From: Planctomycetota bacterium
GTDB taxonomy: Bacteria > Planctomycetota > JAJSAM01
Assembly: GCA_025459285.1 (NCBI GenBank)
Contig: JALOQY010000002.1
Coordinates: 1-54,191 of the forward strand
DNA: 54,191 nt
Reading direction: 5' to 3'
Below are positions 3,901 to 54,013 of the stretch, one piece after another. Each line of letters opens with the position of its first letter. Within the stretch, counting starts at the first letter, position 1. Below the pieces are notes generated by a model, which saw nothing but the letters and a program-made list of their open reading frames with translations, ran no database searches and was not told the origin of the DNA. The position numbers were made by a program, and so were the translations under genes.

Positions 3901-4097
3901 TCTGGCCCGACCCGGACTTCCGGCGGGAGGTCGTCTACCGCCTTCGCCCGGGGAAGGCCCTCGAGCCCCGGGAGGGCATCGGTCCGGCGTTCGATCCGGC
4001 GGCCGTCCTCTTCTCCGAGTGGCCGGTGGCCTTCAGCCAGTGGACCCGCGCCTGGGATCGCGGCGAGGAGCTCCTTCCGCGGCTCCCTCTCGCCTAG
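978..4097 (+). CDS. large multi-pass membrane protein, family not recognised
   Basis: ATG at 978 opens a 1039-aa ORF. The central block has many hydrophobic helices (WVLLAGLHHFVAHF, GLGSFFFALLHSG, AIFGLLAMAGVSGF, AVFLGVNLFLYSPFF, AAILLGGAMTVAIPGLCGFLAW). It is flanked by Arg/Ala-rich soluble regions. No catalytic motif recognised. Confidence 0.7.
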   Translation: MRALRELLAGPWPAIVVPPRLLRRVARRAGRARGFRVPHGDGLTVGRAALLECVTAAEMGLSDGDVPGGPVILVARREAERPGAEYDPAARRLLWRVRFHGAVHAVLEGRIAAGEIDAAAIRRDIDRIGQVAFDEAREVLRHEDRLAPPAGDAEVFVEFAARYLELSVFDPRALPLWFPAAAGGGRAGAVLGAYVDGPALAEATRVPGAAEEEGGATPAALRRPEVERGRERPGLRKRAERAARRGNAVRAAIISVRGGREAEAFGYLDELLARLGAAYPEVHGQPFRDGLRELLLLAGGGTRTAAGKALFDLQKGCVEHERGVYAVDLRGCLTSLFRRPLRRDLPRLREVLVFRRLRRAADRIARAGLGRGGFGEALARAVEEAGERLRHGFGPPLRAVLRGCGLTQGTLPERVGVERAVAGLLDHLLSTGRLRIGDVRDVISRSDAKLPSVRSPAQWLLRDPLLIADRRLAVKLDGVYRRGEVYLRWLQRLSAAALGTRAGSFLVRYAAVPFGGAWVLLAGLHHFVAHFAPGARLTAWGPVLGLGSFFFALLHSGRFRRGMAKAGKVAVKAARAVVGLPARLLHLPIVARILGSRTTKLLFRYVLRPAAGTAAIFGLLAMAGVSGFPEPLAALAVFLGVNLFLYSPFFRRAEERAADWLLVNWNFLRRTVLTGLFRAVMATFRLLLDLLDRILYRIDEWLRFREGDPRVSVVLKAVANPVWGTVGYVLRFAVTLVVEPQINPIKHFPVVTVAHKVFLPFAPKIASLFSPLGPFAAILLGGAMTVAIPGLCGFLAWELRENWRLFATNRSPLLGPVMMGHHGETMIRLLRPGFHSGTLPKAWRKLRRAPAGGGRERRAREMLLSVVESVARFVERHGVWLLRERGVDARVGEVRLAGNAVRVTLPGLVVLSFEEQSGRIVAGVEELTPGATATGPVRTAVVGLLKRAGVEVVRGQVAAALNGVPWDVSDRGLVVWPDPDFRREVVYRLRPGKALEPREGIGPAFDPAAVLFSEWPVAFSQWTRAWDRGEELLPRLPLA

Positions 4098-4152
4098 CAG
4101 CCCGTGCGCGTGAGCCCTCATGCGCACGGAGGCCTCTCGGCAACGGGCCGCC
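4095..4152. repeat. degenerate member of the TAG-CAGCCCGT palindromic repeat family
   Basis: Begins with the TAG stop (4095-4097) of the 978..4097 gene, followed by CAGCCCGT. The right arm cggcaacgggccgc resembles the family arm ggcgacgggctgc. The core differs from the other copies. Confidence 0.45.
4102..4129 (+). terminator. stem-loop immediately after the stop codon (12-bp stem with one G-U pair, 4-nt loop)
   Basis: ccgtgcgcgtga-gccc-tcatgcgcacgg. There is no U-tract, so activity as an intrinsic terminator is unproven. Confidence 0.4.
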
Positions 4153-4158
4153 AGGGCG

Positions 4159-14422: not shown

Positions 14423-14439
14423 GGGAAGGAACGACTATA

Positions 14440-14455
14440 CCCGACGGGCTGCTGA
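14440..14455. repeat. single arm of the palindromic repeat family
   Basis: cccgacgggctgctga lies between the phoU stop and the M14-like gene start. No matching second arm was seen. Confidence 0.4.
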
Positions 14456-15170: not shown

Positions 15171-15176
15171 GGCGGT

Positions 15177-16055: not shown

Positions 16056-16056
16056 G

Positions 16057-17739
16057 TCAGAAATGACCCTCCCCGAACTTGCGGCGCAGGCGGCCGCGGA
16101 TCCAGATGGAAGCGACGTTGAGCGCCACGACGATGCCGATGAGGAGCAGCGTCGTGGTGAAGACCATCGGTTTCGCGGCTTCGCTGTTCTGGCTCTGGAA
16201 GCCGAGGTCGTAGATGTGGAAACCGAGATGCATGAAGCTGCGCTCGGGGTGGACGAAGGGCGCGACGCCGTCGATGGGTAGTTCCGGGGCGAGCTTCACC
16301 GCGCCCACGAGCATGAGCGGAGCGACCTCTCCCGCGCCGCGGGCCATGGCGAGGATCGTGCCCGTCATGATGCCCGGCATGGCGCGGGGAAGGACGATCC
16401 GCCGGATCGTCTGCCACTTGCTCGCCCCGCAGGCGTAGGAGCCCTCGCGCATGGAGCGGGGCACCGCGGCGAGCGCCTCCTCGGTGGCCACGATGACCAC
16501 CGGCAGGGTGAGGAGCGCGAGGGTCAGCGAAGCCCACAGCAGTCCACCCTTCCCGTACTTCGGGTTCGGGAGGAACTCCGGGAAGAAGATCTCGTCGATG
16601 CCCGCGCCGAGGATGTAGCAGAAGAACCCGAGGCCGAACACGCCGAAGACGATGCTCGGGACGCCGGCGAGGTTGTTGATCGCGATGCGGACGGTGCTCA
16701 CGAGAAACCCGGCCTTCGCGTACTCCCGCAGATACAGGGCGGCGAGCACTCCGAAGGGGACGACGAGGATGCACATGATGAGGGTCATCACCACGGTGCC
16801 GAAGATGGCCGGGAAGACGCCGCCCTCGCTGTTGGCCTCGCGCGGTTCGTCCGAGAGGAACTCCCACCAGCGGGAGAGGTAGAGACCGGCTTTCCCGAGA
16901 ATGGTCATCCGGTTGGGGGCGTGGGCGCGGACGATCTCGGAGAGGGCCAGCGCCTTCTCCTTGCCGTCGGCGGTGCGGAGCACCATCCGGTAGCGGTCGT
17001 TCTCGCGGTTCAGTTCGGCGATGCGGCCGGAGATCTCGTCGAAGTCGACCTTGCACTCCTCCGTCACCCGGGCGAGGCGCTCGAGGGCCGCGACATGCTC
17101 GGGAGAGTCCCGGCCGTGGTCGAGCACGACCCGGTTGACATCGAGGCGGGCGCGCTCCTGCCGGTGGTTGACGCGTCCGATGTCCACGCGCTCCAGTTCC
17201 TGTCGGACCGCGAGCCGGTCGCGGCACTCGTCATGGCGCTCGAGGTAGCGCTGCCAGACGACTTCCGGTGTCGTGGCGATGGCCTGACCGTCGAGGAGGA
17301 ACGCGGCGGGGTAGCCGTAGAATCGCCCCCACTCCAGACGCTCGATGACGACGGCCCACTCCGGCTCCGACTCCGAGACGATGTCGGGGTCGGAAATCCA
17401 GTCGAAGTGGGTGCCGGAGAGCTCGAAGTTCCCGGTGCGCAGCATCCGCCGCCGTGTCTCCGGCTCGCCGGGGGGGGTGAAGTCCTCGGTGCGGCTGATC
17501 TCTCCCAGGAAGACCTTCGTCGCGGTCCGGATCTCCGGCACGGGACCGGGCCAGAACGTCGAGAGTCCCTGCAGGAGGACGAGCAGGAGCAGCCCGACGA
17601 CCATGAAGAGCCCGATGGCGAGCGCTCCGCCGTTGAGCCAGACCATGGGCTCGCCGTGCGCGAAAAGCGAGGTGCGCCGAGCCCTCCGCGGCCGGCGGGA
17701 GGAAGCGGGCGGGTCCTTCACGGGTGGCGTCACGTTCAC
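16057..17739 (-). CDS. pstA: phosphate ABC transporter permease PstA, long form with ~260-aa periplasmic insert
   Basis: The C-terminal permease core matches PstA ([51 protein letters not shown]). The GTG at 17739 overlaps the pstC stop (GTGA). An alternative ATG (MVWLNGG) lies 30 codons downstream. Confidence 0.85.
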
Positions 17740-20318: not shown

Positions 20319-20343
20319 GGACGTGGGTTCCGGGACAGAGAGA

Positions 20344-20373
20344 GCGGGCGTCGGGTCGCAGCCCGACGCCCGC
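20344..20373 (-). terminator. perfect 12-bp stem / 6-nt loop hairpin between pstS and pstC (attenuator or mRNA 3' stabiliser)
   Basis: gcgggcgtcggg-tcgcag-cccgacgcccgc sits 21 nt downstream of the pstS stop in the transcribed direction. Confidence 0.5.
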
Positions 20374-20393
20374 GCGAGGATCGAGGGAAAGGC

Positions 20394-21380
20394 CTACCGG
20401 ACGCCGATGGAGGCGAGGGAGTCCGTGGCGATCTTCGCCGGCAGCGGGAAGAAGCCGTCCTTCACGACGACTTCCTGACCCTGGCGGGAGTAGACGTAAC
20501 GGAGGAACTCCCGGCGCAGCGGGTCCATCTGGCTGCCCGGCTTGTGGTTCACGGTCAGGTACAGGAACCGGGCCAGGGGGTAGTCACCGGTGTAGGCGTG
20601 CTCCACGACGGCCGGCACGTAGTCCTTCGTCGCGCCCGCGGCGAGCGGGACGGCGCGGACGTCGGCGGTGACGTAGCCGATGCCGGAGTAGCCGATGGCG
20701 AACTTGTCGCTCGCCACGCCCTGGACGACGGAGGAGGAACCGGGCTGCTCCTTGACGGAGTCCTTGTAATCCCCCTTGCCGAGGGCGTGCTCCTTGAAGT
20801 AGCCGTAAGTGCCGGAGGCCGCGTTGCGGCCGTACAGGCTGATCGGCTGCGAGGCCCACTCGCCGGTGAGGCCGAGGTCGCCCCACGTCCGGATGTCGCT
20901 GGGATGGCCGAGCTTGCGGGCCTTGCCGAAGATCGCGTCGACCTGCGCCAGGGACAGGCCGGCGATGGGGTTGTCCTTGTGGACGAAGACCGCGAGCATG
21001 TCGATCGCCGTGGGGAGCACGGTGATCTTGTAGCCGTACTTCGCCTCGAACTCGTCATGCTCGGCCTGCTTGACGTCGCGGCTCATGGGACCGAAGGTCG
21101 ACTGGCCGCTGATGAGCGCCGGGGGAGCGGTCGAGGAACCCTTGCCCTCGATCTCCACCTTGACGCTCGGATAGTGGACGCGGTAGCCCTCGGCCCACAG
21201 GGTCATGAGGTTGTTCATCGTGTCGGAGCCGACGCTCTTGATCGTGCCGGACACGCCCTCCACGGGGGCGTAGGCGGGGATCGCGGGGTCGACCGGCACG
21301 TTGCCGGCGGAGGCGCCGACGGCGAGGAGCGCCGCGAGGCCGAAGCCGGCGAGGACGGGGAAGGACCTTCTCATTCGCAT
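20394..21380 (-). CDS. pstS: phosphate ABC transporter substrate-binding protein PstS
   Basis: Signal peptide, GSDTMNNLMTLWAEGY, GKGSSTAPPAL and AIGYSGIGY, matching the PBP-like phosphate-binding family. Confidence 0.9.
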   Translation of the reverse strand: MRMRRSFPVLAGFGLAALLAVGASAGNVPVDPAIPAYAPVEGVSGTIKSVGSDTMNNLMTLWAEGYRVHYPSVKVEIEGKGSSTAPPALISGQSTFGPMSRDVKQAEHDEFEAKYGYKITVLPTAIDMLAVFVHKDNPIAGLSLAQVDAIFGKARKLGHPSDIRTWGDLGLTGEWASQPISLYGRNAASGTYGYFKEHALGKGDYKDSVKEQPGSSSVVQGVASDKFAIGYSGIGYVTADVRAVPLAAGATKDYVPAVVEHAYTGDYPLARFLYLTVNHKPGSQMDPLRREFLRYVYSRQGQEVVVKDGFFPLPAKIATDSLASIGVR

Positions 21381-21399
21381 CTCGTTTCTCCTTGTTCGC

Positions 21400-21424
21400 G
21401 CACCCCGACGGCCGCCGGGGGTGC
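21400..21424 (-). terminator. stem-loop between the porin gene and pstS
   Basis: gcacccc-(11 nt)-ggggtgc, followed on the minus strand by the RBS aaggagaaa and the pstS ATG. Confidence 0.35.
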
Positions 21425-21446
21425 GGGGGTGTGTCGGTGTGGGTTC

Positions 21447-22868
21447 CTAGAAGTCGAACTGGAAGCGCATCTCGAAGACGTCGAGGTTGCCGACGTCGTC
21501 GATGTCGGAGAGGACGTAGTTGAACATGATGCGCATGTGCGGATTCAGGTAGTAGTTGAGGCCGAGGGTCCAGTTGGTGGCCTTGCCGCCCTCGACGAGG
21601 GCGTCGTCGAGGTCGATGTTCGAGAGACGGGCGGCCAGTTCGACCGCGCCGGGGCCGCCGGCATCGGGGTCGTTCAGGTTACCCTTGACCTTGACCCGGT
21701 CGAAAGCGCCCGACTTGTAGGCGCGCGTCTCGCCGGTCAGGAAGTAGCTCGCGAGGATGTACCAGCCGTCGAACCGCGGGTCGTCAAAGTCCTCGGAGTC
21801 GAGGTCCATCGTCAGGTACTCGGCCTGGAGGGAGAAGGGGCCGGCGACGAAGGCTGCTTCGAGGCCCAGGATCATGGCCTTGTCGGCAGTGATGTCGCCC
21901 GTGTCCACCACGGAGAGGCTCGTGCGCGCTTCGGGGGTCGACTTGATGCGCCACTTGTCGTCGGCCGCGTGGCGGAAACTGCCGGAGATCCCGAGGTGGA
22001 GGAACATGCTGCCGTCCTCGGACTTGTAGGGGGTGCCGCTGATGCGGGCGGTGATCGAGGGGTCGGTCCGCCCGTTCGCCTGGTCGTCCGTGGTGGCGAA
22101 GACGCCGCCGGCCCACTGGAGACGGTCCTCGAACGCCTTGTCATGGAGCATGAGACCCACGTTGCGGCTCGGGGTGAAGGCCCCGATGGGCATCGCGCGC
22201 TCCATGAAGGTGATGTAGCGGCTGGAGGTCAGCTCCTCGAGACCCATCGGCTCCTTGAAGTGACCGACGCGAACGGCGCCGACGACCGGTATGCCCTTCT
22301 GCTCCATGTAGACGTCCTTCAGGGCCGTCTTGGAGCCGGCGAAGTCGATCTCCACTTTGGCGTAGGAGTTCGTGTAGAAGGTCGTGTCGAAGCCGAGGCG
22401 CGCGGTTCGGGTCTTCACCTCGTTGTAGAACTGCGTGTCGTACTTGATCACGTCCTTGGCGCTCGGACCCGGGGTGGGCGCGGACAGCTCGTCCCAGTCC
22501 TCGTCGTAGATGGCCATGTCGAAGTAGACGCGGCCGAAGACGGAGGCCTTGAACTTCCCGTCGGCGGTCTCGAACTTGAGGCCGTTCTTCCAGAACGCCC
22601 GCATCGTGTTCGGCTGCTGCCAGAAGTTCGCGTCTTCCGTCTTGCTCAGGAAGCGGTCGAGCTCCGACTCGAGGGAGTCGCTCGCCTGCTGCTGGACCGC
22701 GAGCCCTTCACGGAGGCTCTCGATCTCCTCCTGCTGCCGGCGGACGAGTTCCTCGAGGTTGCGGATCCGCTCGTCCACGGATCCATCGGCCTCCGCGCCC
22801 GACGCCGACACGAGAAGCATGGCGGCAAGCGCGACGGTGGTGATCACCACCTTCACCGGACTGTGCAC
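21447..22868 (-). CDS. phosphate-selective porin O/P family outer-membrane protein
   Basis: Signal peptide and an N-terminal coiled coil (RIRNLEELVRRQQEEIESLRE). Beta-barrel body ending in the aromatic residue F (EMRFQFDF). Its position inside the pst cluster supports the call. The start is set at GTG 22868, which is preceded by AAGGAG at 6-nt spacing. The ORF-track start at 22895 is a TTG. Confidence 0.8.
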   Translation of the reverse strand: MHSPVKVVITTVALAAMLLVSASGAEADGSVDERIRNLEELVRRQQEEIESLREGLAVQQQASDSLESELDRFLSKTEDANFWQQPNTMRAFWKNGLKFETADGKFKASVFGRVYFDMAIYDEDWDELSAPTPGPSAKDVIKYDTQFYNEVKTRTARLGFDTTFYTNSYAKVEIDFAGSKTALKDVYMEQKGIPVVGAVRVGHFKEPMGLEELTSSRYITFMERAMPIGAFTPSRNVGLMLHDKAFEDRLQWAGGVFATTDDQANGRTDPSITARISGTPYKSEDGSMFLHLGISGSFRHAADDKWRIKSTPEARTSLSVVDTGDITADKAMILGLEAAFVAGPFSLQAEYLTMDLDSEDFDDPRFDGWYILASYFLTGETRAYKSGAFDRVKVKGNLNDPDAGGPGAVELAARLSNIDLDDALVEGGKATNWTLGLNYYLNPHMRIMFNYVLSDIDDVGNLDVFEMRFQFDF

Positions 22869-22940
22869 TGGGGTCTCCTTTCGAAGAGGGAACAATTGCC
22901 CTATGGGGACGGAATGCTAGGAAACGAGTGTGAAGAAGGG

Positions 22941-24725
22941 TTAAACGGCGGGTGAAGTGTGGCGGGGGAGGGTGATGCGGAAGGCGCTTCCGGCCCCGGG
23001 GCGGCTCGTGACCGAGACTTCGCCGCCGTGCGACTCGGCGATGTGCTTCACGATGGACAACCCGAGGCCGGTGCCGCCCAGTTCCCGCGAGCGCGCCTTG
23101 TCCACGCGGTAGAAGCGCTCGAAGATCCGGTCGAGGTGCTCGGGTTCGATGCCGATGCCGGTGTCCTCCACCTCGATCATCACTCTGTCGCCCTGGTTCG
23201 CGCAGCGGAGGGCGACGTTGCCGCCCGGCGGCGTGTACTTCATGGCGTTGTCGAGCAGGTTGTCCACCGCCTGCCGCAGGGCCTCCGGGTCGCCGACGAC
23301 ATTCGCGGGCTCGGCCGGCAGGTCGCCGGAGAACGACAGTCCGCGCTCGAGGCAGTCCGCCGAAAACCGCCGGATGCAGTCCGTGAGCGGTCCGCGGAGA
23401 TCCAGTTCGGCGCGTACCACGGCGCCTTCGCCGGACTCCACGCGGGACAGCGTCAGGAGGTCGGTGACCAGGGCGGAGAGCCGGAGAGTCTGGTCGTGAA
23501 TCCGGCCGAGGAAGCGCCGCGAGGTCTCCGCGTCGATTTCGCCGTCCTTCGCCTCCAGCATCGTCTCGGCGTAGCCGCGGATCGCGGTGAGGGGCGTCTT
23601 GAGTTCGTGGGAGACGTTCGCGACGAAATCGCGGCGCACCGTCTCCAGGCGGCGCAGTCGGCTCACGTCGTGGAGCACGAGAACCGCGCCGGCCACGCGC
23701 CCCTCGGCATCGCGGAAGGGCGCGGCGTGGAGTTCCAGGACGCGCTCGCGGAGCGGCTTCGGGAGCCGCACCTCGCGGGAGGACTCGGCCCGCCCGGCGA
23801 GAACCTCGGCCAGGGCGCCGCTGACGGGTTCGACGCGGGTGATCTCCCAGATGCGCTGGCCGAGCGCGGCTTCAGGCCGCACCCCGAGGAAGAGGCCGGC
23901 CGGTCCGTTCATGTGGACGACGCGCTCCTCGCGATCCACCGCCACGAGGCCTTCCAGCATACCGGAGAGCACGCCATACAGACGGTTGCGCTCCTCCGTG
24001 AGGGCGAAGAGGCGCTCGCGGAGCTGACCCGACATCCGGCCGACGGCCACGGCGAGCTTCCCGACCTCGTCGGTGCCGTGGTGGGGGATGGGCGTCTCGT
24101 AGTCGCCGGCCGCGACGGCTTCGGCGGCGGTGGTCATCTTGGCGAGGGGCCGGGCGATGGCCCGGAAGAGGAGGCCGCCGAGTACGAGCGAGAGGACGGC
24201 GGCGGCGGACAGGGCGAGCACGAGGTTCTTCCCGAGGTCCGCGAGGCGGGCCTTCACGAAGGTGAGGGGCAGTGCCACTCGCGCGGTCCCGCCGCCACCG
24301 GGGACGGGAATCGCCGCGTACATCATGTCCAGCCGGACGGTGCGGCTGAACCTCGTCACGAATGCCGGCCCGCCGGTTTCCGCCGCGGTTCGCACCTCCG
24401 GACGCTGAGCGTGGTTCTCCATTTCATCCGGCGGTTCCGCGGAATCGGCGAGGACCGAGCCGTCCGCGGCGATGACCGTGAAGCGGGCGCCCGTCCGGGC
24501 GCCGATGTCGTTGACGATCGAGCGCAGAGCGGCCGGCGCGAGGGGCGGTTCCTCCGTCATGAGGCGCTCGAGAATCCGTGCGCTGGCGACGAGGTTCGCG
24601 CGCAACTGGGAGAGGGCCGTCTCCCTCACCCGCCGCGCGCCGAGGACCCAGACCGTGGCGGCGGTGAGGAGAAGCACCGCGGCGAAGCCCGCGTACAGCT
24701 TCCAGAAGAGCCGGGAGCGGAGCAT
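22941..24725 (-). CDS. phoR: phosphate regulon sensor histidine kinase PhoR
   Basis: Two TM segments, HAMP and PAS. H-box SHELKTPLTAIRGYAETM, N-box DNLLDNAMKYT and G-box GGTGLGLSIVKHI. Adjacent to phoB. Confidence 0.9.
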   Translation of the reverse strand: MLRSRLFWKLYAGFAAVLLLTAATVWVLGARRVRETALSQLRANLVASARILERLMTEEPPLAPAALRSIVNDIGARTGARFTVIAADGSVLADSAEPPDEMENHAQRPEVRTAAETGGPAFVTRFSRTVRLDMMYAAIPVPGGGGTARVALPLTFVKARLADLGKNLVLALSAAAVLSLVLGGLLFRAIARPLAKMTTAAEAVAAGDYETPIPHHGTDEVGKLAVAVGRMSGQLRERLFALTEERNRLYGVLSGMLEGLVAVDREERVVHMNGPAGLFLGVRPEAALGQRIWEITRVEPVSGALAEVLAGRAESSREVRLPKPLRERVLELHAAPFRDAEGRVAGAVLVLHDVSRLRRLETVRRDFVANVSHELKTPLTAIRGYAETMLEAKDGEIDAETSRRFLGRIHDQTLRLSALVTDLLTLSRVESGEGAVVRAELDLRGPLTDCIRRFSADCLERGLSFSGDLPAEPANVVGDPEALRQAVDNLLDNAMKYTPPGGNVALRCANQGDRVMIEVEDTGIGIEPEHLDRIFERFYRVDKARSRELGGTGLGLSIVKHIAESHGGEVSVTSRPGAGSAFRITLPRHTSPAV

Positions 24726-25429
24726 CAGGCCTCGACGTCCTTGAACCGGTAACCCACGCCCCGAACCGTTTCGATGAGGTCCCGGTAATCCCCGAGCTTG
24801 CGGCGGATCGAACCGACGTGGACGTCGATGTTGCGGTCCACGACGACCGCGTGTTCCCCGATCACGCGGGAGAGGAGGTGGTCCCGGGTGAAGACCCGCC
24901 CGGGATGTCCGGCGAGGAAGTGGAGGAGGCGCATCTCGGTGGCCGTGAGGGTGACCGGCTGGCCGTCCACCTTCAGCTCGTGGCGGGCCACATCGATCAA
25001 CAGCCCCTCGCGGGCGATCCGCTCCGGACCGGTCTTGCCTTCCCGGATGGGACCGCGGCGCAGCACGGCCTTCACCCGGGCCACGAGCTCGCGCGGGCTG
25101 AAGGGCTTCACGATGTAGTCGTCGGCGCCGAGACCGAGGCCGAGCACCACATCGCTTTCCTCGCCCTTCGCGGTGACCATGACGATGGGGATGTCGCGGG
25201 TGACCTCGTCGGCCCGGAGGCGGCGGCAGACCTCGAGTCCGTCGATGCCGGGCAGCATGAGGTCGAGGAGCACGATGTCGGGATTGTCACGGCGGATCCG
25301 GCGCAGGGCCTCGTCGCCGTCCTTCACCGGTACGGCTCTGAATCCCTCCCGTTCGAGGTTGAACCGCATGACCTCGAGAATATCGGCCTCGTCCTCGACC
25401 ACGACGGCAATCGGTCGCCTGGCGCTCAT
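24725..25429 (-). CDS. phoB: phosphate regulon response regulator PhoB (OmpR family)
   Basis: Receiver domain (VVVEDEADI, DIVLLDLMLPGIDG, TAKG) plus a winged helix (VFTRDHLLSRV, VDVHVGSIRRKLG, VRGVGYRF). The start is the internal ATG MSARRP at 25429. The stop overlaps the phoR ATG by 1 nt. Confidence 0.9.
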   Translation of the reverse strand: MSARRPIAVVVEDEADILEVMRFNLEREGFRAVPVKDGDEALRRIRRDNPDIVLLDLMLPGIDGLEVCRRLRADEVTRDIPIVMVTAKGEESDVVLGLGLGADDYIVKPFSPRELVARVKAVLRRGPIREGKTGPERIAREGLLIDVARHELKVDGQPVTLTATEMRLLHFLAGHPGRVFTRDHLLSRVIGEHAVVVDRNIDVHVGSIRRKLGDYRDLIETVRGVGYRFKDVEA

Positions 25430-25500
25430 GGAGCCCTCCCGTGAATCACAACCGGATACCATCCCGAGATCAAGCCTGCGTGAAGGGTGGGTCAATCCTG

Positions 25501-25561
25501 GCAGCCCGTCGGGGCAGAAGGTCGCAGCGCAGAGACCGTCCCTGGCCCCGACGGGCTGCTA
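25501..25561. repeat. palindromic repeat family, best copy (15-bp arms, 29-nt core)
   Basis: gcagcccgtcggggc-(29 nt)-gccccgacgggctgc. The right arm runs into the TAG stop (25559-25561, minus strand) of the toroid gene. It lies between that operon and the phoB promoter region. Confidence 0.85.
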
Positions 25562-26686
25562 GCGGATGAACGCGAGGAGAGCGGTGACGGCGTAGGCCGT
25601 CCCGTAGACCTTGTGGTAGCCGTAGAGCTGATAATCCCAGAAGGAGCCGTCGGGATGACGGGTGTAGAGCACTTCCTCGATGAGCGCATCGCGCAGGGCC
25701 GGCGAAACCGGGCCGGGAAGGCGCTTCAGGACCTCGCCGGCGTAGTGGTAGCCGAAGAGGTAGAAGTAGCCGGACACCGCGAACCAGCTCTCGTGGGGGA
25801 CGGGGCGGTGGTAGGCCATGCGGGCGAAGGGAGCTTTCGCGGCGAGGTTCTCGACGCCGGCGAGCATGGCCTCCCGGCTGACGCCGCCGTCGAAGAGATG
25901 GAGGGCCAGGTCGCAGGCGGGAGTCCGGGTGAGGGAACCGGGCCTCCGGTTGATGCCGGAAGCGGGGTGCATGCGCCAGTCGTAGCTGTAGACGTACATG
26001 CCCTCCCGGGTCCGGCAGCGGGCCAGGGAGCGGACGCCGCGCGCGATCACGGGAGCGGGGACCGTGAGGCCGGCGGCGCGCGCCTCGTGGAGGGCGATCA
26101 GGATGGCGGCCGACGTGAACGTCATGGAGTCGCCGGACGGCCGAGCCGTCTGGGCATTGAAGTCGTAGTAGGTCCAGCCTCCGTCGAGAGTCTGATAGCG
26201 GACGATGGACTCGATCATGCGGGCCGCCGCGGCTCTTGCCGCGCCCGGATCGAAGTCGGACGGAGGGGCTGATAAGCAGCGGCTGATAGCCTGGAGGCCG
26301 TAGGCGAGAGCCCACACCGCATACAGCTCCTCACCGTCGGCCCGCCGGGCCCGCCCGTGCTTCACGACCCAGTCCGCGGCCCGGGAGCGGGCGGCGAGCA
26401 ACGCGGGATCCTCACCCGGGGCGGCGAGGAGGGCCATGAGCGCGAGCGACGTGCTCGCGGCGTGGAAGGCCCGCGTCCCCCCGGGCACGGCGGCCCGGAT
26501 CTTGTAGGGACTCCCCTGGGCGTGGGAGCCGAAGGAGCCGTCGGAGTTCTGGATCGACAGGAGGTAGCGGATCCCGGCTTCGGCGGCGGCTCGCGCGCGG
26601 TCCGGTGCGGGTTCGACGGGAGCGGCGGAAGGAGCACCCCACGCCAGCGCGGCGAGGACAGGCAGGAGGAGTGGTGCGGACCTCAC
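25559..26686 (-). CDS. secreted alpha/alpha-toroid protein (prenyltransferase / squalene-cyclase-repeat-like)
   Basis: The GTG at 26686 overlaps the upstream stop (GTGA). Signal peptide LLLPVLAALAWGAPSA. Repeats of the LLSIQNSDGSFG, RYQTLDGGWTYY and RHPDGSFWDY type. Confidence 0.7.
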   Translation of the reverse strand: MRSAPLLLPVLAALAWGAPSAAPVEPAPDRARAAAEAGIRYLLSIQNSDGSFGSHAQGSPYKIRAAVPGGTRAFHAASTSLALMALLAAPGEDPALLAARSRAADWVVKHGRARRADGEELYAVWALAYGLQAISRCLSAPPSDFDPGAARAAAARMIESIVRYQTLDGGWTYYDFNAQTARPSGDSMTFTSAAILIALHEARAAGLTVPAPVIARGVRSLARCRTREGMYVYSYDWRMHPASGINRRPGSLTRTPACDLALHLFDGGVSREAMLAGVENLAAKAPFARMAYHRPVPHESWFAVSGYFYLFGYHYAGEVLKRLPGPVSPALRDALIEEVLYTRHPDGSFWDYQLYGYHKVYGTAYAVTALLAFIR

Positions 26687-28095
26687 TTCTGCTCCGCCGG
26701 CGGCAGCACCTCGTCGCCCTCCGTGAGCCCGGCCTTCACGACGGTCCGCCGGCCGTCGGTGGCGCCGAGGACGAGGTCCACCGCCTCCTCGCGGTCCGGA
26801 GCGCGAAGGACGATCGCGAAGGTGCGGCCGTTCTCGCGCCGGACGGCGGAGTTCGGGACGAGCAAGACGTCGCGCCACTCTTCGAGAAGCACGCGGGCCT
26901 TGACGGGGATCCCGATCAGGCGGGGAGCGAGGGGTTCGTCCGGGACGATGACCAGGGCGAAGTTCGCGCCGCGGGGCAGCGGGGCGACCTTCCGGACCAC
27001 GGCCGGGACCGGCGCGGCGCCCGCCGCTTCGGGCGAGATCACGGCCGTCTGCCCCGGGGAGAGCCGGAGTGCCTCCCGCACCGGGATCATGACGGCCGCG
27101 ACGAGGCTTTCGGGATCGATGATCGAGGCCACGGCGGACTGGGCGGCCACGACCGCGCGGGGGGCGAAGACGCGGTCGATCGCTCCCTCCGCCGGCCCGT
27201 GGAGGAGGGTACCATCCACCGGGGCGCGGACCGTCATGGCGGCGCGATCCTCCGTGAGGCGGGCCAGGTCGCGCTCCTGCCGGGCGTACTTGCGCCGTGC
27301 ACGCTCCATTTCGATGGCCCTCGCGCGGCGGTCGATGGTCGCTTCGCGCCGGGCACGGTCGAGTTCCGCGCGGCGGTTCCGGACGGCCAGGCCGAGGTTC
27401 CTCTCGCGCTCGGGCTTCTCGTACTCCTCGGCGAAGGCCCGACCCCGCTGGCGCAGGGCGAAGGACGTCTCGCGGTAGGTGACGTCGAAGCGCGCGCGGT
27501 CGAGGACGATCTTCTCGGTCTCGTCGACCAGCTCGTCCTCGGCGTAGAGCTTCTCGAGTTGGGCGAGTTCGTCGCGGGCGCTCTGGACCCACCGCCTCGA
27601 CTGCTCGGTCTCCAGCTTCTCCCGGTCGTTGTCGAGGGGCTTCGTCACCTCGATCCACGCGCGGAGGTTCTTCTCGGCGGTCGCGAGTTCCAGCTCCTTG
27701 CGCTCCAGCACGTCGGCGGAGACCTCGTCGGCGATGCGGTGGCGCTCGGCCAGGGCGTCGAGGGCGGTCCGGGCCGCCGAGATCTCGAAGCGCGCCTCCT
27801 CGATCGCCTGCGTGATCTCCTCCTCGTCGAAGCGGAAGAGGACGTCCCCGGCCGAGACGCGGGCGCCCGGCTCCAGGACTTCCTGCAGCACGAGGCGGCC
27901 GGAGAAAGCGCGCGTGGTGAGGAGGACCTCCGTCACGCCCTGCGGTTCGAGGCGGCCGGCCCCCTCCGCTTCCACGCGGAGGGCGCCACGCTCGACGAGA
28001 AGGGGCGCCGCCGAACCGGGGGCGGCGAGGAGGAGGCAGGTCGCGAGGAGGGGGAGGGATGGTCGCACGGTTTGTCTCCGGGGATGGACGTTCAC
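26683..28095 (-). CDS. HlyD / efflux-adaptor family membrane-fusion protein
   Basis: The GTG at 28095 overlaps the kinase stop (GTGA). Signal/anchor LPLLATCLLLAAPG. Lipoyl-like hairpin (GARVSAGDVLFRFDE), a long coiled coil, and a C-terminal beta-barrel ending in the typical VKAGLTEGDEV. Confidence 0.8.
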   Translation of the reverse strand: MNVHPRRQTVRPSLPLLATCLLLAAPGSAAPLLVERGALRVEAEGAGRLEPQGVTEVLLTTRAFSGRLVLQEVLEPGARVSAGDVLFRFDEEEITQAIEEARFEISAARTALDALAERHRIADEVSADVLERKELELATAEKNLRAWIEVTKPLDNDREKLETEQSRRWVQSARDELAQLEKLYAEDELVDETEKIVLDRARFDVTYRETSFALRQRGRAFAEEYEKPERERNLGLAVRNRRAELDRARREATIDRRARAIEMERARRKYARQERDLARLTEDRAAMTVRAPVDGTLLHGPAEGAIDRVFAPRAVVAAQSAVASIIDPESLVAAVMIPVREALRLSPGQTAVISPEAAGAAPVPAVVRKVAPLPRGANFALVIVPDEPLAPRLIGIPVKARVLLEEWRDVLLVPNSAVRRENGRTFAIVLRAPDREEAVDLVLGATDGRRTVVKAGLTEGDEVLPPAEQK

Positions 28096-30944: not shown

Positions 30945-31020
30945 GGGGTTGTAGCTCAGTTGGGAGAGCGCCGCACTCGCATTGCGGAGGTCAGGGGTTC
31001 GAATCCCCTCAACTCCACCA
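30945..31020 (+). tRNA. tRNA-Ala (anticodon CGC), CCA encoded
   Basis: Cloverleaf folded by hand. Acceptor GGGGTTG/CAACTCC with the G3:U70 alanine identity pair, and D arm GCTC/GAGC. Anticodon stem CCGCA/TGCGG with loop CTCGCAT. T arm AGGGG-TTCGAAT-CCCCT, then ACCA. Confidence 0.97.
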
Positions 31021-34402: not shown

Positions 34403-34543
34403 CCGCGAATCCCCGGAGTTTCGGTGCCGCCAGCGGACTTCGTGAGCGCGCCCGTCGCGATGGGATTGCGGGCGTGCCCGCGCGGTGACGCCGGGGTGAT
34501 CTTCGGCGGCCAGCATCGCGGGTCAGGATCCCGAGGAGGCTCC

Positions 34544-41200: not shown

Positions 41201-41769
41201 GCCTGATCGTGCGCGTCTTCTCGGACCGCGGTCGGCCGGCCCCGGCGGCACGGGTCCGGGTCCTCGACGCGGCAGGCGAACCGGCCACGCTCCCGGCGGA
41301 TCGGCCCTGCGACGCCGAGGGCCGGTGCGTGCTCGACGGGCTCCGCGCCGGGGTGTACACCGTCCGCGTGGAGGCCGAAGGCCGGGCCCCGGCGGAGAGG
41401 ACGGGGGTCGAGGTGTTCCCCGGAGGGCAACCGTTGGAAGTCGAGTTGCGACTGGCCGCGGAAGGTCGCCTGGTGCTCCGCGTGGCGGGGCCGGGGGGCT
41501 TCGGTCTTTCGGGGGCGAAAGTGAGCCTGCGGGATTTCTGGGGCCGACCGGTTCCGTTCACCCGCGTGGAGGCCGGCCTCCGAAGAGCCTTCCGGGAGCC
41601 CGACCAGTCCGACGAGGACGGGGAACTCGCGATCCCGGGCCTGCCGGCGGGGATCTACGAGGTTTCCGCAGAGCTCCCGGGCTTCGCGGGCCGGCCGGCA
41701 CGCGTCCGGGTCCTGGACGGGGAGATGTCGAGGGGGACCGTCGTCCTCGCCCCGATCGAGAAGCGCTAA
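38218..41769 (+). CDS. secreted protein of ~12 tandem carboxypeptidase-regulatory-like (prealbumin-fold) domains
   Basis: The ATG overlaps the thiL-tsaE stop (ATGA). Signal peptide LAALLIFAGVAIA. A recurring ~85-aa module reads GRVxDxxGxPVxGAEVxL....TDxxGxFxLxGLxPGxYxVxVxAPGF. Confidence 0.8.
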   Translation: MRTLAALLIFAGVAIAAPLTVTVRTDDGAGNHVPVPGAAVIAADAGATVFPEDALSGALSTDPAGRAVIRGFASVVVGPDETEVTIDLPAEAILAGRVVDAQGRAVPAAEVRLTRETGEDLAVPTGRGRLSFRTYCDVEGQFRVDRLARGARYAVVVRAPPSAPLVLRDHEPPPEPVTLALAPGAAVRGRVTARPGGEPVAGAEVVAGEATARTGPDGSFVLRGIAPGTVVLGVRAPGVRSVEEARMLLGPGEERSGVVLAVRAAARIRGRVLRPDTTPAAGAEVFLVYPSDPARPGETRRIETARCDDTGRFESQDLDPARGVDLIARHPESSPVAHLGYTLSAGASVEAVVFLRPGGVLAGRVIAAETGEGVEGATVTAVDEAAAPAGPGAPLGTAGLLSVSATTGKDGAFVLPHVPAGRRLLRAVAPGRPPASLAGVEVAEGSRREGLGLVLGTGVVLAGTVRGTGGVPLADAEVAAEGAFGIRAETRTGADGTFRLAGLVAGPWRVSVSAPGYAPGVTPEAIAPGPALDFVLGRTTGIAGRVVVPGSGPTAAIVRALLWREEDPAEPGRPSWSVVAVRRAGAGDGAFAFADLPPETFRLEAFAENGSHGLLDGVRAGGEPVEIAVVPGFPVSGRVVRSIDGRPVEAAEVALRGNADLPAPCATRTDAEGRFRLSGLPPGFHAVLVSAPGFAPRLVAGVEVREGSETEISDIRLSEGAVVRGTVTGSGGAPRVGLAVRLRTVASGAEVRVVTDERGEFEVSGLAAGEWLARVEDARAGTGGAERERLFRVPEEGEVELLLGTGQGTTVSGRITRRGDAQPHAAITALRITGGIAEDRAFLTVRATAEGDYQLPDLDPGDYVLLVRTAGPGGFAARFPIRVRPGPSQTEDLRLADSGIAGRVEDLDTGEGVAGAELVLIREGDPGTGFMAGLFAEEGRVRSGEEGEFRFESVEPGLYRIRAFREGSGQAVAGPIRVLPGGETPARIALPRGARLIVRVFSDRGRPAPAARVRVLDAAGEPATLPADRPCDAEGRCVLDGLRAGVYTVRVEAEGRAPAERTGVEVFPGGQPLEVELRLAAEGRLVLRVAGPGGFGLSGAKVSLRDFWGRPVPFTRVEAGLRRAFREPDQSDEDGELAIPGLPAGIYEVSAELPGFAGRPARVRVLDGEMSRGTVVLAPIEKR

Positions 41770-41825
41770 CAGCCCGTCGGGGCAAGCCTCCGCTCTGGTG
41801 GAAGCCCATCGGCGACGGGCTGCTA
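41767..41825. repeat. palindromic repeat family, sub-family B copy
   Basis: TAA stop (41767-41769), then cagcccgtcggggc, then the core aagcctccgctctggtggaagcccat, then cggcgacgggctgcta. Confidence 0.75.
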
Positions 41826-41837
41826 CCCCGATTGCCC

Positions 41838-41863
41838 CGAACTTTTCGCGGCGGAATCCGTTC
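41838..41863 (+). promoter_or_regulatory. possible ECF-type promoter (GAAC-N16-CGTT) upstream of the ECF sigma gene
   Basis: ccGAACtt at 41839-41842 and CGTT at 41859-41862 are separated by 16 nt. The motif lies ~22 nt upstream of the ATG at 41884, which is consistent with autoregulated ECF promoters. Confidence 0.35.
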
Positions 41864-44786: not shown

Positions 44787-45992
44787 ATGCGGATCCGTCC
44801 CTTTCTCCCATCCCTGCTCCTCGGACTGACCGCCGCCGTCGCGGCGGGGGCGGGCGACGATCCGGTCACGCGGATGGGGAAGACGCTCCTTCCCCGGAGC
44901 GACCTGGTGGTCCGCGGCGCGGCGGTGCGATCGTCGCGGCTGGGGGCGGGCGTGACCGTGGTGCGCTTCGCGGTCGCCGATCCGCTCCACGGCAGACCAG
45001 CCGGTGACACGGTCACGATCCTCGCCGACAATCCGGAAGTCTGCCCGGCCCCGGGGCTCTCGTGCGTGCTCTTCCTCGCCCGTCTGTCCGGTGACCGGTA
45101 CCGGATCGTGGAACGTATGGACCTCGCCGGTGTGGATGGGGCCGCCAAGCTGAAGACCCTGCGGGCCTATCTCGCCATCGAGGAGATGACCGATCCGGTG
45201 GAAAAGCGGCGGGCGCTGCGGGCCCTCCTGCTGGAAAACCTGATCAGCGGTGACAACTTCCTCGTCTACAGCTCGGCGCGCGAACTGGCCCACTTCACCG
45301 AGGAGAATGCCGGGTTGTTCACGCCGGAGGACGCGGCGATCCTCGCGGGCAAGAGACAGACCGCGCGAGACCCGCTGCTCACTGACCTGCTCACGACCTC
45401 GCTCGAGCGGCTCCCTCCACCACCGGGGGCCGAGGAGACCGCGCCACCGATCCCACGGGCTCTCCGGTCGCCGGAGTTCGAGCGCCTCGCGGCGGCCTTC
45501 GAGAAGGGGATCGAGGACGTGGAGGAACGACGCTCGGCCCTCGCGGCCCTCTGCGCGCGACATCTCCGCCACGCCGGTCCGATCCTCCTCGCCGCCCTGT
45601 CCGACCCGGATCCGGTCGTTCGGGAGATGGCCGCACGGGAGGCCGGAGAGGCCGGGCTCGCGGAAGCGGTGAAGCCGCTTATTGCGCTCCTCGGTCGGGA
45701 GAAGGACCGGGAGGTCCTGCGGGGGGTCATACAGGGGCTTGGACTCCTCCGAAGCGAAGAGGCGTTCGCCTCGATTTCGGCCTTCGCCGCCGACGCGGGT
45801 CTCGTCCGGGCCGTGGCCACGGCGGCGATGAGGATCGGCACGACCGGGGCGGTGGACTTCGTCCGCGGGCTGCGCGCGTCCCGCGGGGAGAAAGAACCGG
45901 AACTCGCGGACTTCCTCGACTTTCTGCTTTCCGAGCGCTTCGTGGAGCAGGAGGCCGTCCTGGCGCGGGTCCGCGCCGGCCGCCTGCGTTAG
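44787..45992 (+). CDS. secreted HEAT-repeat protein
   Basis: Signal peptide PSLLLGLTAAVAAGAG. HEAT repeats (LLAALSDPDPVVREMAAREAGEAG, LIALLGREKDREVLRGVIQGLG). Confidence 0.75.
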   Translation: MRIRPFLPSLLLGLTAAVAAGAGDDPVTRMGKTLLPRSDLVVRGAAVRSSRLGAGVTVVRFAVADPLHGRPAGDTVTILADNPEVCPAPGLSCVLFLARLSGDRYRIVERMDLAGVDGAAKLKTLRAYLAIEEMTDPVEKRRALRALLLENLISGDNFLVYSSARELAHFTEENAGLFTPEDAAILAGKRQTARDPLLTDLLTTSLERLPPPPGAEETAPPIPRALRSPEFERLAAAFEKGIEDVEERRSALAALCARHLRHAGPILLAALSDPDPVVREMAAREAGEAGLAEAVKPLIALLGREKDREVLRGVIQGLGLLRSEEAFASISAFAADAGLVRAVATAAMRIGTTGAVDFVRGLRASRGEKEPELADFLDFLLSERFVEQEAVLARVRAGRLR

Positions 45993-46050
45993 TAGCCCGT
46001 CGGGGTAAGGGGTCGCATTGCCGAGAACGTCCCCGGCCCCGACAGCCCGG
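45990..46050. repeat. palindromic repeat family, sub-family A copy (plus an extra inverted arm at 46088-46106)
   Basis: TAG stop (45990-45992), then tagcccgtcggggt, then the core aaggggtcgcattgccgagaacgtcccc, then ggccccgacagcccgg. The 12-nt cggggtaagggg (46001-46012) recurs inverted at 46088-46099. Confidence 0.75.
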
Positions 46051-46132
46051 CGTCCGGGCGGAAACGGGACCGGAGCCGGCGATGAAACCCCTTACCCCGG
46101 TCGGCCCCGAGGCGGTACACTCGCCCATTCCC

Positions 46133-49269: not shown

Positions 49270-49274
49270 CCTTC

Positions 49275-49336
49275 CAGCCTGTCGGGGCCAAGGACGATCT
49301 CTGCGCTGCGACCCCTTCGCCTCGAAAGGCTGCTGG
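49275..49336. repeat. palindromic repeat family, sub-family A copy in inverted orientation
   Basis: cagcctgtcggggccaaggacgatctctgcgctgcgacc matches the reverse complement of 25501-25559 at 36 of 39 positions (hand alignment). It starts 5 nt after the TGA at 49267-49269. Confidence 0.8.
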
Positions 49337-49362
49337 TGGCCGGTGTTCGGGAGGTGGCCTCC

Positions 49363-50626: not shown

Positions 50627-51076
50627 ATGGCGTTGAACGAACTCGAGGTCGACGAACGGAGGTTGCCGGGCGGAGACCGGCGGCGGCGTCCGACGCCGAT
50701 GCTGAGCCGATACACGCTTTGGGGCCGCCGGCGGAACATGCGCCGGGCGAGCGAGATGGCCAATTCCTATGTGGATCGCTATGGGTTCCGAGTAGCGGCG
50801 GTCCTCGCGGGGATCCTCATTCTGTGCGTGCTCGATGCGGTCTTCACCCTCCTTTACCTCCAGAAGGGCGGGGGAGAACTGAACCCCCTGATGCGCCGCG
50901 CGATCGAGGCCGGCACGGGGCCGTTCATCGCCATCAAGTGCGGTCTCACCATCGCGGGGATCCTCTTCCTTGCGCTGCACAAGAACTTCCGCTTCGTGAA
51001 GGGGCTCATCGCGGGAGTCCTCGGGTTCTACCTGCTCCTCCTCGGCTACCACCTGTACCTCGCGTCGGTTACCTAG
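50627..51076 (+). CDS. small membrane protein, DUF5658-like, with Arg-rich N-terminal tail
   Basis: ATG at 50627 follows GGAGG. The N-terminus reads GGDRRRRPTPMLSRYTLWGRRRNMRR. Four hydrophobic helices follow, with the LDAVFTLLYL..GGGELNPLM motif I associate with DUF5658 (from memory). Confidence 0.65.
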   Translation: MALNELEVDERRLPGGDRRRRPTPMLSRYTLWGRRRNMRRASEMANSYVDRYGFRVAAVLAGILILCVLDAVFTLLYLQKGGGELNPLMRRAIEAGTGPFIAIKCGLTIAGILFLALHKNFRFVKGLIAGVLGFYLLLLGYHLYLASVT

Positions 51077-51119
51077 CAGCCCGTCGGGGCGGGGATCGCG
51101 TGTTCTTCCCCGAGGCCGG
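51074..51119. repeat. truncated copy of the palindromic repeat family
   Basis: TAG stop (51074-51076) followed by cagcccgtcggggc. Only a weak second arm is present (ccccgaggccgg, 51108-51119). Confidence 0.5.
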
Positions 51120-51138
51120 TCTTGCCGAGGGTGGTACA

Positions 51139-52674: not shown

Positions 52675-52684
52675 GAGCCTGCTG

Positions 52685-52741
52685 GCAGCCTGTCGCCGGG
52701 ATGCCTCCGCGCGCCCGGGGGCTTGTGCCGACGGGCTGTTA
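52685..52741. repeat. palindromic repeat family, sub-family B copy shared by two convergent genes
   Basis: gcagcctgtcgccgg-(core)-gccgacgggctg runs into the TAA stop (52739-52741) of the minus-strand HEAT gene. The left arm starts 10 nt after the TAG of the Kelch gene. Confidence 0.75.
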
Positions 52742-54013
52742 GCGAGGGCGCGCGGCTTCGCGGCGCTCGATGAGCTGGATCGCCCGTTCGGCGGCCTTCC
52801 GGACCCCGGGATGCTGGTCCTGGGCGGCGATGGAGGAGAGGGTGGGGACCGCGCCCGTCCCTCCGAGCCCCGCGACCGCGCGGATGGCCTCCAGGCGGAC
52901 CGCAGGCAAAGGATCGCTCGTGGCGGAGCGGAGGATCGGGGTGACGGCCGCGGGCTGCCGCGTCCGGCCCAGGGCCCGGATCACCTCCGTCCGGAAGTCC
53001 GGGGCTCCGCCTTGCGCGAGGGCGTCCGACAGGGCGGGGACCGCGGCGGGGTTCGACAGATCCCGAAGGCTCTTCAATCCGATGGCCCGCTCCTCCGGAT
53101 CGGAGGACGCGGCGTAGGAGAGCACGGCCGAAGCCCCGCGCTCGCCGCCGAGCTGGGAGAGGGCGGCCAGCGAGTACCGGCGCACGGATGGATCGGCGGT
53201 GGACGCGAGGAGGGCGATGAGGTCATCGGTTCCCGCGCCGCTTCGAGTGGCGAGCAGGCTCTGGAACGCGACGTCGCGCAGGCGGGCGTTCGGCGTATCT
53301 CCGAGGAAGTCCACGAGGCCGAAGACGGCGGCGTCATCCGCCATCACCCCGAGCGCCTGCAGCCCGCGCGCCACGGCCTGAGGGTTCTGCTCCTGACCGA
53401 TGAATCCGAGAACCCCCCGGACCGCCTCCTCCCCGCCGAGGCGTTCGAGGTGGGAGAAGAGGAGGTTGCGGACGCCGAAGTCGGTCTGGGCGGCGAGTCC
53501 TTCGAGGAGGAGTCCCAGGTCCTCGGGGCCGAGCTTCGTCCCCCTCGGCGTGAACGTGGCGATGAGAAACGCGAGGAGCTGCCCGGGGTCCTTCAGGTCG
53601 ACGGTCTTCTTCAACTGGTCGACGATCGGGTCGCGCGCCCGGCTGCCGCCGGCGGGACCGTCCGCGCCCTCCGAGGGTCCTCCTTCAGCCGGCGTTCCCG
53701 GCGGCGCGTCGCCGCCCACGGGACCGTCCTGCCCGGGGAGTGCCGCGGCGCCGGGAGATGAGCCGGGTCCCCGGGCGCCTCCGCCATTCCCGAAATCTCC
53801 TTCCCGGCGGAGTTCGGCGAGAAGACCGCCTTCCTCGTCGGGCAGCGGAGGCGGCGGAGGGCGCGCGACGGGAGGCTCGTCGTCGGATTCCTCCGTGCTC
53901 CGCGAGGGCAGGAACGGGAGGTGGACGACGCCCGAGGCCGAGAGGGCGATGAGGGTGACCACACCCGCCGCGAGGACGATGCCGAGGAAGACGAACCGTT
54001 CGAGCCAGTTCAT
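52739..54013 (-). CDS. membrane-anchored HEAT-repeat protein
   Basis: N-terminal TM segment FVFLGIVLAAGVVTLIAL, a Pro/Gly/Asp-rich linker, then HEAT repeats (LASTADPSVRRYSLAALSQLGG, ATSDPLPAVRLEAIRAVAGLGG, QDQHPGVRKAAERAIQLI). Confidence 0.75.
   Translation of the reverse strand: MNWLERFVFLGIVLAAGVVTLIALSASGVVHLPFLPSRSTEESDDEPPVARPPPPPLPDEEGGLLAELRREGDFGNGGGARGPGSSPGAAALPGQDGPVGGDAPPGTPAEGGPSEGADGPAGGSRARDPIVDQLKKTVDLKDPGQLLAFLIATFTPRGTKLGPEDLGLLLEGLAAQTDFGVRNLLFSHLERLGGEEAVRGVLGFIGQEQNPQAVARGLQALGVMADDAAVFGLVDFLGDTPNARLRDVAFQSLLATRSGAGTDDLIALLASTADPSVRRYSLAALSQLGGERGASAVLSYAASSDPEERAIGLKSLRDLSNPAAVPALSDALAQGGAPDFRTEVIRALGRTRQPAAVTPILRSATSDPLPAVRLEAIRAVAGLGGTGAVPTLSSIAAQDQHPGVRKAAERAIQLIERREAARPR

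Follow-up and report, generated by a model that had tools for sequence, protein, structure and literature searches.

A family of ~60-nt palindromic repeats at stop codons in a Planctomycetota contig, probably derived from CTAG-targeting IS1182-family elements

[quoted passage not shown] Here we describe a repeat family that is like them in form and would presumably be moved in the same way, found in a 54,191-nt stretch of DNA from an uncultured Planctomycetota lineage (contig JALOQY010000002.1; hereafter the window) with ~71% G+C, of which 5.3% is intergenic. The window elements differ from described bacterial MITEs in being much smaller, essentially one TIR set against another, in their probable IS1182-type parent, in their insertion at CTAG, and in that one end of the element is the stop codon of a neighbouring gene in six of seven copies. 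Stop codons, CTAG and IS1182 all go unmentioned in a 2024 review of prokaryotic MITEs. The clustering and nesting with other mobile elements seen here resemble those of the BOX/RUP/SPRITE clusters of pneumococcus (PMC10969869).

The IS1182 family includes IS1272 of Staphylococcus and ISPse1 of Paracoccus (1653 bp, 16-bp inverted repeats), which was captured experimentally and makes 4-bp direct repeats (PMC3281130); palindromic sequences have been reported as the targets of some members (PMC5678879). The window elements have arms matching the TIRs of the family members that we recovered, as well as CTAG flanks in common with them, but carry no transposase gene and measure ~60 nt against ~1.6 kb. 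IS1272 reportedly takes the place of target hairpins and leaves no duplication, unlike the CTAG-flanked copies described here. The same palindromic target logic is known from IS630 (the work cited as reference 29 in PMC2170065) and from IS5-group elements in Mycobacterium shottsii, which have CTAG direct repeats (YTAR/CTAG, 4 bp; PMC9241763), but a different transposase family is implicated here, and systematic overlap with stop codons is part neither of the M. shottsii report nor of what PMC2170065 relays about IS630. Finally, repetitive extragenic palindromic (REP) sequences and their hairpin-forming doublets (REPINs), associated with REP-associated tyrosine transposases (RAYTs), are GC-rich extragenic palindromes of similar size that lie near gene 3´ ends.

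Copies, sub-families and stop-codon overlap

A first-pass annotation, made from the letters of the window without database searches, had proposed a dispersed palindromic family with two sub-families, and the family proved to be real. The arm motif CAGCCCGTCGGGGC occurs 12 times in the window at up to two mismatches, against 4.8 ± 2.2 in shuffled sequence, and none of 100 shuffles reached 12. An nhmmer search of the window with a profile built from the reported copies returned seven dispersed, non-coding elements (Table 1; copies are named c4095, c25501 and so on) as well as a weak solo arm, with no other match in the window. The copies listed in the annotation comprise seven elements, one solo arm and one fragment. 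The elements are 58-67 nt long and bounded by inverted arms of 14-18 nt, which are 94% complementary in c25501. Cores of sub-family A (c25501, c49275 and c45990, the last with its core on the minus strand) are similar to one another at z = 5.1-7.9 relative to shuffles, and those of sub-family B (c41767, c4095 and c52685, the last with its core on the minus strand) at z = 2.4-5.8. No significant similarity was found between core A and core B in the same shuffle comparison. The cores are therefore better than shuffled sequence within each sub-family, and the likeness does not collapse to the GC-rich arms; a hand alignment of the reverse complement of 25501-25559 with 49275-49313 (36 of 39 positions) was exact on recomputation. 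An intact hairpin survives in c25501 alone, at -47 to -49 kcal/mol and z -5.2 to -5.8. The remaining copies are decayed, with folding z-scores of +0.7 to -2.3 and stems containing uncompensated mismatches. Further copies of the family were found on contigs L061, L105, L119 and L144, where L- and P-numbered sequences are the metagenomic contigs and proteins used for comparison.

The defining feature of the family had been overlooked in the first-pass annotation: the terminal CTAG or CTAA is the stop codon of the neighbouring gene. All well-preserved ends have CTAG or CTAA directly outside CAGCCCGTCGG, and the terminal TAG or TAA ends the adjacent gene in six of the seven copies (4095, 25501, 41767, 45990, 51074 and 52685), the gene-side ends being CTAG three times, CTAA twice and TTAG once (YTAR). 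The copies are thus at gene 3´ ends, as had been stated, and are not purely intergenic, since in six of the seven the final 3 nt of a coding sequence fall within the element. Among 37 genes called from codon usage there are 24 TGA, 10 TAG and 3 TAA stops, and the repeats supply six of the 13 TAG/TAA stops in the window. The stop can stand at either end relative to the core (compare c45990 with c25501) and hence belongs to the symmetric termini as such.

If copies fell at random in intergenic DNA, overlap of this degree would have P ~3e-11. CTAG is, however, ~20-fold depleted in the window (7 observed, 140 expected), and if tolerance is limited to non-coding YTAR or CTAG sites, six of seven copies would be expected to lie on stop codons (P = 0.26-0.58); a target of TA alone would be marginal (P = 0.017). 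For TA itself, 1099 occurrences are expected and 396 observed, of which only 20 fall in intergenic DNA outside the elements. The two ends of the elements have fared differently: TA is retained at six of six gene-side ends versus one of seven free ends (Fisher P = 0.004), and the free ends mostly read CCAG or CTGG. We can only guess that the recurrence of CCAG/CTGG reflects a bias from CTAG to CCAG like that of very-short-patch repair. In L061, L105, L119 and all full-length IS copies, the self-complementary CTAG is present on both flanks, whereas the free ends in the window are decayed. In five of eight complete copies (flanks of c4095, c52685, L061, L119 and L148), moreover, the bases that adjoin CTAG to the left and right are complementary to each other (NCTAGN´), which points to a preference for a longer palindrome as target or to a TIR that extends further.

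Integron attC sites often contain the stop codon of their cassette, and the repeats recall them in being ~60-nt imperfect palindromes that begin at a stop, with a few ends of the form ...CTAAC / GTTAG... that bring to mind box R´´ (RYYYAAC) and box R´ (GTTRRRY). Most ends are TAGC/GCTA, not AAC/GTT, copies occur in both orientations, and the neighbours are large syntenic core genes, not cassettes, with neither an array nor an integrase in the window. We therefore give next to no credence to an attC origin.

Orthologous junctions in related contigs

Syntenic loci were located through homologues of the PilT-like ATPase, which have 89% amino acid identity (~75% nucleotide identity) in L179, 74% in L180 and 64% in L181/L182. 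No element is present at any of five orthologous junctions in L180 and L182, where the orthologues end at most one codon from the ends of the window proteins, with TGA in the CarboxypepD_reg, first HEAT and DUF5658 genes and TAG in the third HEAT gene. L179, the closest relative, has only degenerate arms, at two junctions. The site of c25501 is likewise empty in the syntenic contigs L251/L252, in which AAA TAG closes the squalene-hopene-cyclase-like (SQHop-like) gene and the spacer after it measures 54 nt, compared with 129 nt in the window. L061, which is 96% identical to window positions 25549-25646, carries a sub-family B element at this same stop codon (after ...TALLAFAR) and then an IS1182 transposase gene. 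Judged from these alignments, in which presence and absence are compared among distant relatives only, the repeats appear to be insertions placed exactly on the stop codon.

These comparisons bear on whether the repeats might be host-evolved regulatory hairpins (terminators, mRNA stabilisers or modulators of translation termination) kept for their usefulness, akin to the domesticated terminators or mRNA stabilisers of the first-pass annotation. All copies are at gene 3´ ends, and the intact one would form a very stable hairpin starting at the stop codon. In E. coli, REP hairpins near stop codons have been reported to influence translation and the decay of mRNA. The elements are missing at the orthologous junctions, however, and six of seven have decayed stems. 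No copy is followed by a T-run, hence no U-tract, and none was flagged by a terminator scan of 24000-27000 and 41000-54191. In addition, either core orientation can face the gene, different cores are found on the same arms, and the arms equal IS TIRs. No sign of domestication was found for the elements, and none matched Rfam at gathering or E-value thresholds. We consider a host-evolved origin highly improbable. Recoding by a SECIS- or PYLIS-like readthrough hairpin after the stop was also considered and dropped, given that the insertions are missing in orthologues and that both TAG and TAA occur.

Relation to IS1182-family elements

Full-length elements of 1583-1639 bp were recovered on related contigs. 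The transposase beside the repeats in L061 and L105 has DUF772, DDE_Tnp_1 and DDE_Tnp_1_6 domains, and the L105, P0213 and P0284 transposases score 357-381 bits on NF033551 (IS1182 family; cutoff 270). In L254, L256 and L257, the ends read ctag followed by CAGCCTGTCGGAGTAAT, and at the other side ATTACTCCGACAGGCTG followed by ctag; ctag is followed by GAGCCTGTCGGAGTAA... in L253 and L258 and by CAGCCTGTCGGAGTAGTCGC... in L262. Of the first 11 bases of the IS TIRs, the window arms (ctag followed by CAGCCCGTCGGGGC...) share 10, or all 11 in c49275, with the same CTAG flanks throughout, and c45990 and the outer TIR of the L105 IS (CAGCCCGTCGGGGTAA) agree at 14 of 16 bases. Full-length IS copies also sit on TAG stops, in L254 (sulfatase gene), L257 (thioredoxin gene) and L258 (ThiS/MoaD-like gene, its product ending GG), the TIR beginning at the base after TAG. 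The matching TIRs and CTAG flanks, the stop-codon habit of the full-length IS and the absence of the repeats in relatives together lead us to conclude that the repeats are, with good probability, miniature non-autonomous derivatives (MITEs or solo end-units) of a CTAG-targeting IS1182-family lineage.

According to this explanation, each element would consist of two IS TIRs (CAGCC[C/T]GTCGG...) back to back around a ~30-nt core and bounded by CTAG. As the flanks suggest, a transposase, encoded elsewhere in the genome or lost, would insert such ends into the palindromic CTAG (YTAR) and duplicate the target. With CTAG so depleted in a 71% G+C genome, the non-coding survivors would mainly be those of ...C-TAG stops, and tolerated insertions would land there. 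The gene-side copy of the duplicated CTAG would re-create the in-frame stop, leaving the protein unchanged. Selection would then keep the end that serves as the stop, allowing a change from TAG to TAA, and the free end would decay, mostly to CCAG/CTGG. Most copies in the window would be old, decayed insertions.

Several observations weigh against an IS1182 origin. As the first-pass annotation had noted, no transposase is present in the 54-kb window, according to Pfam scans of called open reading frames (ORFs) and precomputed hits for the remaining genes. The exact TIR of the window elements (CAGCCCGTCGGGGC; the variant …GTCGGGGC) was found on none of the full-length IS copies recovered, and neither core A nor core B is significantly similar to subterminal sequence in the IS copies fetched. 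Most described MITEs are longer than these elements of 58-67 nt. The family was not found in a 17-mer search of 185,579 representative genomes, where a scan with TARCAGCCCGTCGGGGC gave 57 single matches, all without a partner arm and thus attributable to chance. The orthologous stops of the relatives are mostly TGA, making it an assumption that the window lineage had TAG at the time of insertion. Lastly, empty and filled sites were compared between distant relatives, and the duplication (CTAG or TA) and recent mobility are presumed.

A variant of the proposed origin, rather than a contradiction of it, is that the repeats are solo end-units: IS copies would carry or acquire a ~60-nt unit at each end, and recombination or slippage between the direct-repeat arms of the two would delete the IS body and leave one unit, as in solo long terminal repeats, so that each window copy would mark a former full-length insertion. 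Complete ~60-nt palindromic units bounded by CTAG flank the IS1182 element on both sides in L105 (366-436 and 2031-2095) and L262 (47-106 and 1769-1828; the IS in L262/L263), and one such unit is found at the 3´ end of the IS in L061. These arrays in L105 and L262 resemble nested CTAG-seeking elements or an IS with compound ends; in L105, the N-terminus of an IS110-family transposase was also seen 130 nt away. At the stop codon at which L061 has a B unit plus an IS body, the window has a lone A unit, with flanking coding sequence 96% identical, a difference that deletion from a compound ancestor would explain, and the two core types could be left-end and right-end units. Simple-ended relatives (L253, L254-L257 and L258) lack such units, however, the A and B cores have no significant similarity to any end unit of the recovered IS, and arms of 14-18 nt are short as a substrate for recombination. 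Moreover, the units flanking the IS could just as well have arisen when MITEs entered the pair of CTAG copies that IS insertion makes, a nesting through a common target. We regard loss of an IS body as possible but doubtful.

The flanks can also be read as C-TA-[GCAGCC...GGCTGC]-TA-G, in which case the repeats would be MITEs mobilised by an IS630/Tc1-mariner-type transposase that duplicates TA and prefers TA within CTAG. Duplication of TA (2 bp) accounts for the ends of the L148 copy, CTAA...TTAG, better than direct repeats of 4 bp would, and a preference of IS630 for CTAG is on record (Tenzen and Ohtsubo 1991, as cited in PMC2170065). L179 carries an IS630-family IS (NF033545, DDE_3 + HTH_32) whose visible end abuts C-TA-G, but its TIR (GTGGGCTGTCCATC...) does not match the arms, and this working model was dropped for that reason. 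The TIRs of IS1182-family elements, in contrast, match over 11-16 nt and have CTAG flanks in common with the repeats, and an IS1182 element adjoins repeats in L061 and L105. We now think an IS630-type origin very unlikely. The IS630-family IS of L179 (1-1140), whose two ORFs are separated by a T-run that may be a frameshift site, is missing from the orthologous place in the window, where its empty site is not definable, as the intergenic DNA is not alignable.

The first-pass annotation had called the repeats REP/MITE-like and possibly mobilised in trans. The MITE part, with mobilisation in trans, is supported by the match of arms and CTAG flanks to full-length IS1182-family elements, but the REP part did not hold up. 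Spread of REP or REPIN sequences by a RAYT, an IS200/IS605-like tyrosine transposase, would be in keeping with several GC-rich extragenic palindromes at gene 3´ ends with no transposase nearby, and some published REPs begin GTAGCCCGG... (PMC2817692), to be compared with GTTAGTAGCCCGTCGGGG in c45990. The head, however, is CTAG/CTAA at 16 of the 26 ends listed for IS and element arms, including all the intact ones, with decayed variants at the other ten, and the GT[A/G]G head of REPs (consensus in PMC2817692) is found only as GTAG at the right end of c41767. A single arm holds only a GCCC/GGGC 4-bp self-complement, so that folding needs pairing between arms and there is no REP hairpin of 20-35 nt. 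No alternating array like those of bacterial interspersed mosaic elements was seen, no RAYT or other Y1 transposase is present in the window according to the Pfam scans, and the arms equal the TIRs of DDE-type IS1182 elements. An origin as REPs is, in our judgement, extremely unlikely.

Surroundings of the copies and implications

The individual copies are listed in Table 1. The solo arm is also present in L001, a contig of the same strain (JGI sample 3300037461, 99.98% identical); pairs of DNA-uptake sequences had been considered as an identity for the repeats and were dropped because solo arms are rare. The fragment next to c45990 is intergenic, since the start of the OEP (outer-membrane efflux protein) gene aligns further downstream in L179. 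Another contig of the same strain, JGI Ga0392394_0012018, terminates at ~51068, a few bases from c51074, which suggests that the repeat breaks short-read assemblies.

Table 1. Repeat copies and fragments in the window
Feature	Coordinates	Strand	nhmmer match	Type and ends	Stop codon or context
c4095	4094..4154	+	4094-4154, E = 2.5e-8	sub-family B, degenerate; left end CTAG; free right end decayed to CCAG; core vs c52685 z = 5.8	TAG 4095-4097 ends gene 978-4097(+)
solo arm	14437..14454	-	14437-14454, weak (E ~1)	TCAGCAGCCCGTCGGGTA (minus strand)	between PhoU stop (14481) and M14 peptidase gene start (14422)
c25501	25498..25562	-	25498-25562	sub-family A; sole intact hairpin; 18-nt arms; CTAG 25559-25562; other end CTGG	TAG 25559-25561 (minus) ends SQHop-like gene 25559-26686(-)
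c41767	41766..41826	+	41766-41825	sub-family B; left end CTAA; right end CTAC	TAA 41767-41769 ends CarboxypepD_reg gene (end 41769)
c45990	45989..46052	-	45989-46049	sub-family A, core on minus strand; TTAG end; far arm decayed	TAG 45990-45992 ends HEAT gene 44787-45992(+); its arm retains IS-like GGGGTAA extension
fragment	46085..46108	+		core-A/arm junction CCCCTTACCCCGGTCGGCC, inverted relative to c45990 (46088-46106 in the first-pass annotation)	intergenic
c49275	49271..49337	+	49271-49335	sub-family A; both ends without TA (CTTC, CTGG)	begins 5 nt past TGA (49267-49269) of HEAT gene 47668-49269; ends ~26 nt before PilT start codon (P0001, 350 aa)
c51074	51073..51125	+	51073-51120 (truncated/divergent), E = 3.5e-6	left arm intact (CTAGCAGCCCGTCGGGGC); core and right arm divergent/truncated	TAG 51074-51076 ends DUF5658 gene
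c52685	52682..52742	-	52682-52742	sub-family B, core on minus strand; other end CTGG	plus-strand TTAG = TAA stop of HEAT gene 52739-54013(-); CTGG end 10 nt past TAG of convergent Kelch gene

The hairpin of c25501 lies at the SQHop-like stop, ~95 nt upstream of a phoB-like response regulator gene and inside a pst/pho cluster. An effect of this predicted hairpin on termination, polarity or mRNA stability is plausible. The phosphate-regulon neighbourhood (14481-25495 and 4242-5849) encodes PhoU, PstB, two Pst permeases and a PstS-like binding protein, together with a phosphate-selective porin O/P, a PhoR/PhoB-like two-component pair and PPK2. A tRNA-Ala(CGC) gene is located at 30945-31020.

Other repeats were seen in and around the window. 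Directly after c4095 and between two convergent genes (4157-4236), GGGCAAACTGACCCAGG is repeated, with TGACCC[A/T]GGGTCA palindromes and 30-nt arms that are 83% complementary; a sub-threshold Rfam match to mir-2041 falls at 4183-4226 (36 bits vs 70). A GC-rich repeat of ~240 nt is present in the window at 44470-44717 (with a fragment at 34446-34483), in L061 (1259-1496), where it interrupts the IS1182 transposase gene, and on the opposite strand in L179 (6034-6220), with 82-89% identity. This repeat probably represents a further family of non-autonomous mobile elements, the second in the lineage.

Searches elsewhere gave few relatives of the family. A metagenome scan with both arms returned at least 120 loci, mostly chance matches in coding sequence or members of two unrelated palindromic families, and five true relatives were among the matches listed. 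A scan of viral contigs for TAGCAGCCCGTCGG gave 66 chance matches, none of them palindromic, the intact copy had no blastn match among PLSDB plasmids, and the arm sequence was found in full-text literature only as unrelated primers. An unrelated 46-nt palindromic repeat, CAGCCCGTCGGCGGCTTGTGCGAGGGGCACAGGACGCGACGGGCTG, was observed in L059, L064, L073, L111, L117 and ~30 other human-gut contigs (~44% G+C), sometimes in two copies per contig; it was matched only because a 10-nt arm of the search pattern is common to both. L156 carries a high-GC palindromic family (TTCGGGATCAGCCCGTCGGGA...TCCCGACGGGCTGATCCCGAA) at 7255-7335 and 8424-8502, the copies being 1.2 kb apart, flanked by GATC and not on stop codons.

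The kind of element described here is itself known; the under-described aspect is that its end doubles as the stop codon of a host gene. For a repeat family in an uncultured lineage, IS1182-type ends would provide a concrete origin, and insertion into CTAG with duplication of the target a simple rule that would explain the overlap with stops. The supply of six of 13 TAG/TAA stops by a mobile element bears on gene-end annotation, stop-usage statistics and assembly breaks in such metagenome-assembled genomes. The family would also offer a natural case for how scarcity of a target sequence channels transposons into harmless sites, and it allows a test of the effect of stop-codon hairpins on termination or mRNA fate. 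More speculatively, C-TAG stops, as the chief landing sites in high-G+C genomes from which CTAG has nearly vanished, may be a safe-haven target of the IS1182 lineage and its derivatives, with homing to stop codons a selected strategy and not a by-product of CTAG scarcity, an idea toward which we remain sceptical. If true, insertion would be nearly cost-free, since the stop is regenerated, and stop codons would form a niche of bacterial transposons not described before; the combination of a stop codon and a strong hairpin at the termination site could then systematically alter translation termination, operon polarity and 3´-end stability.

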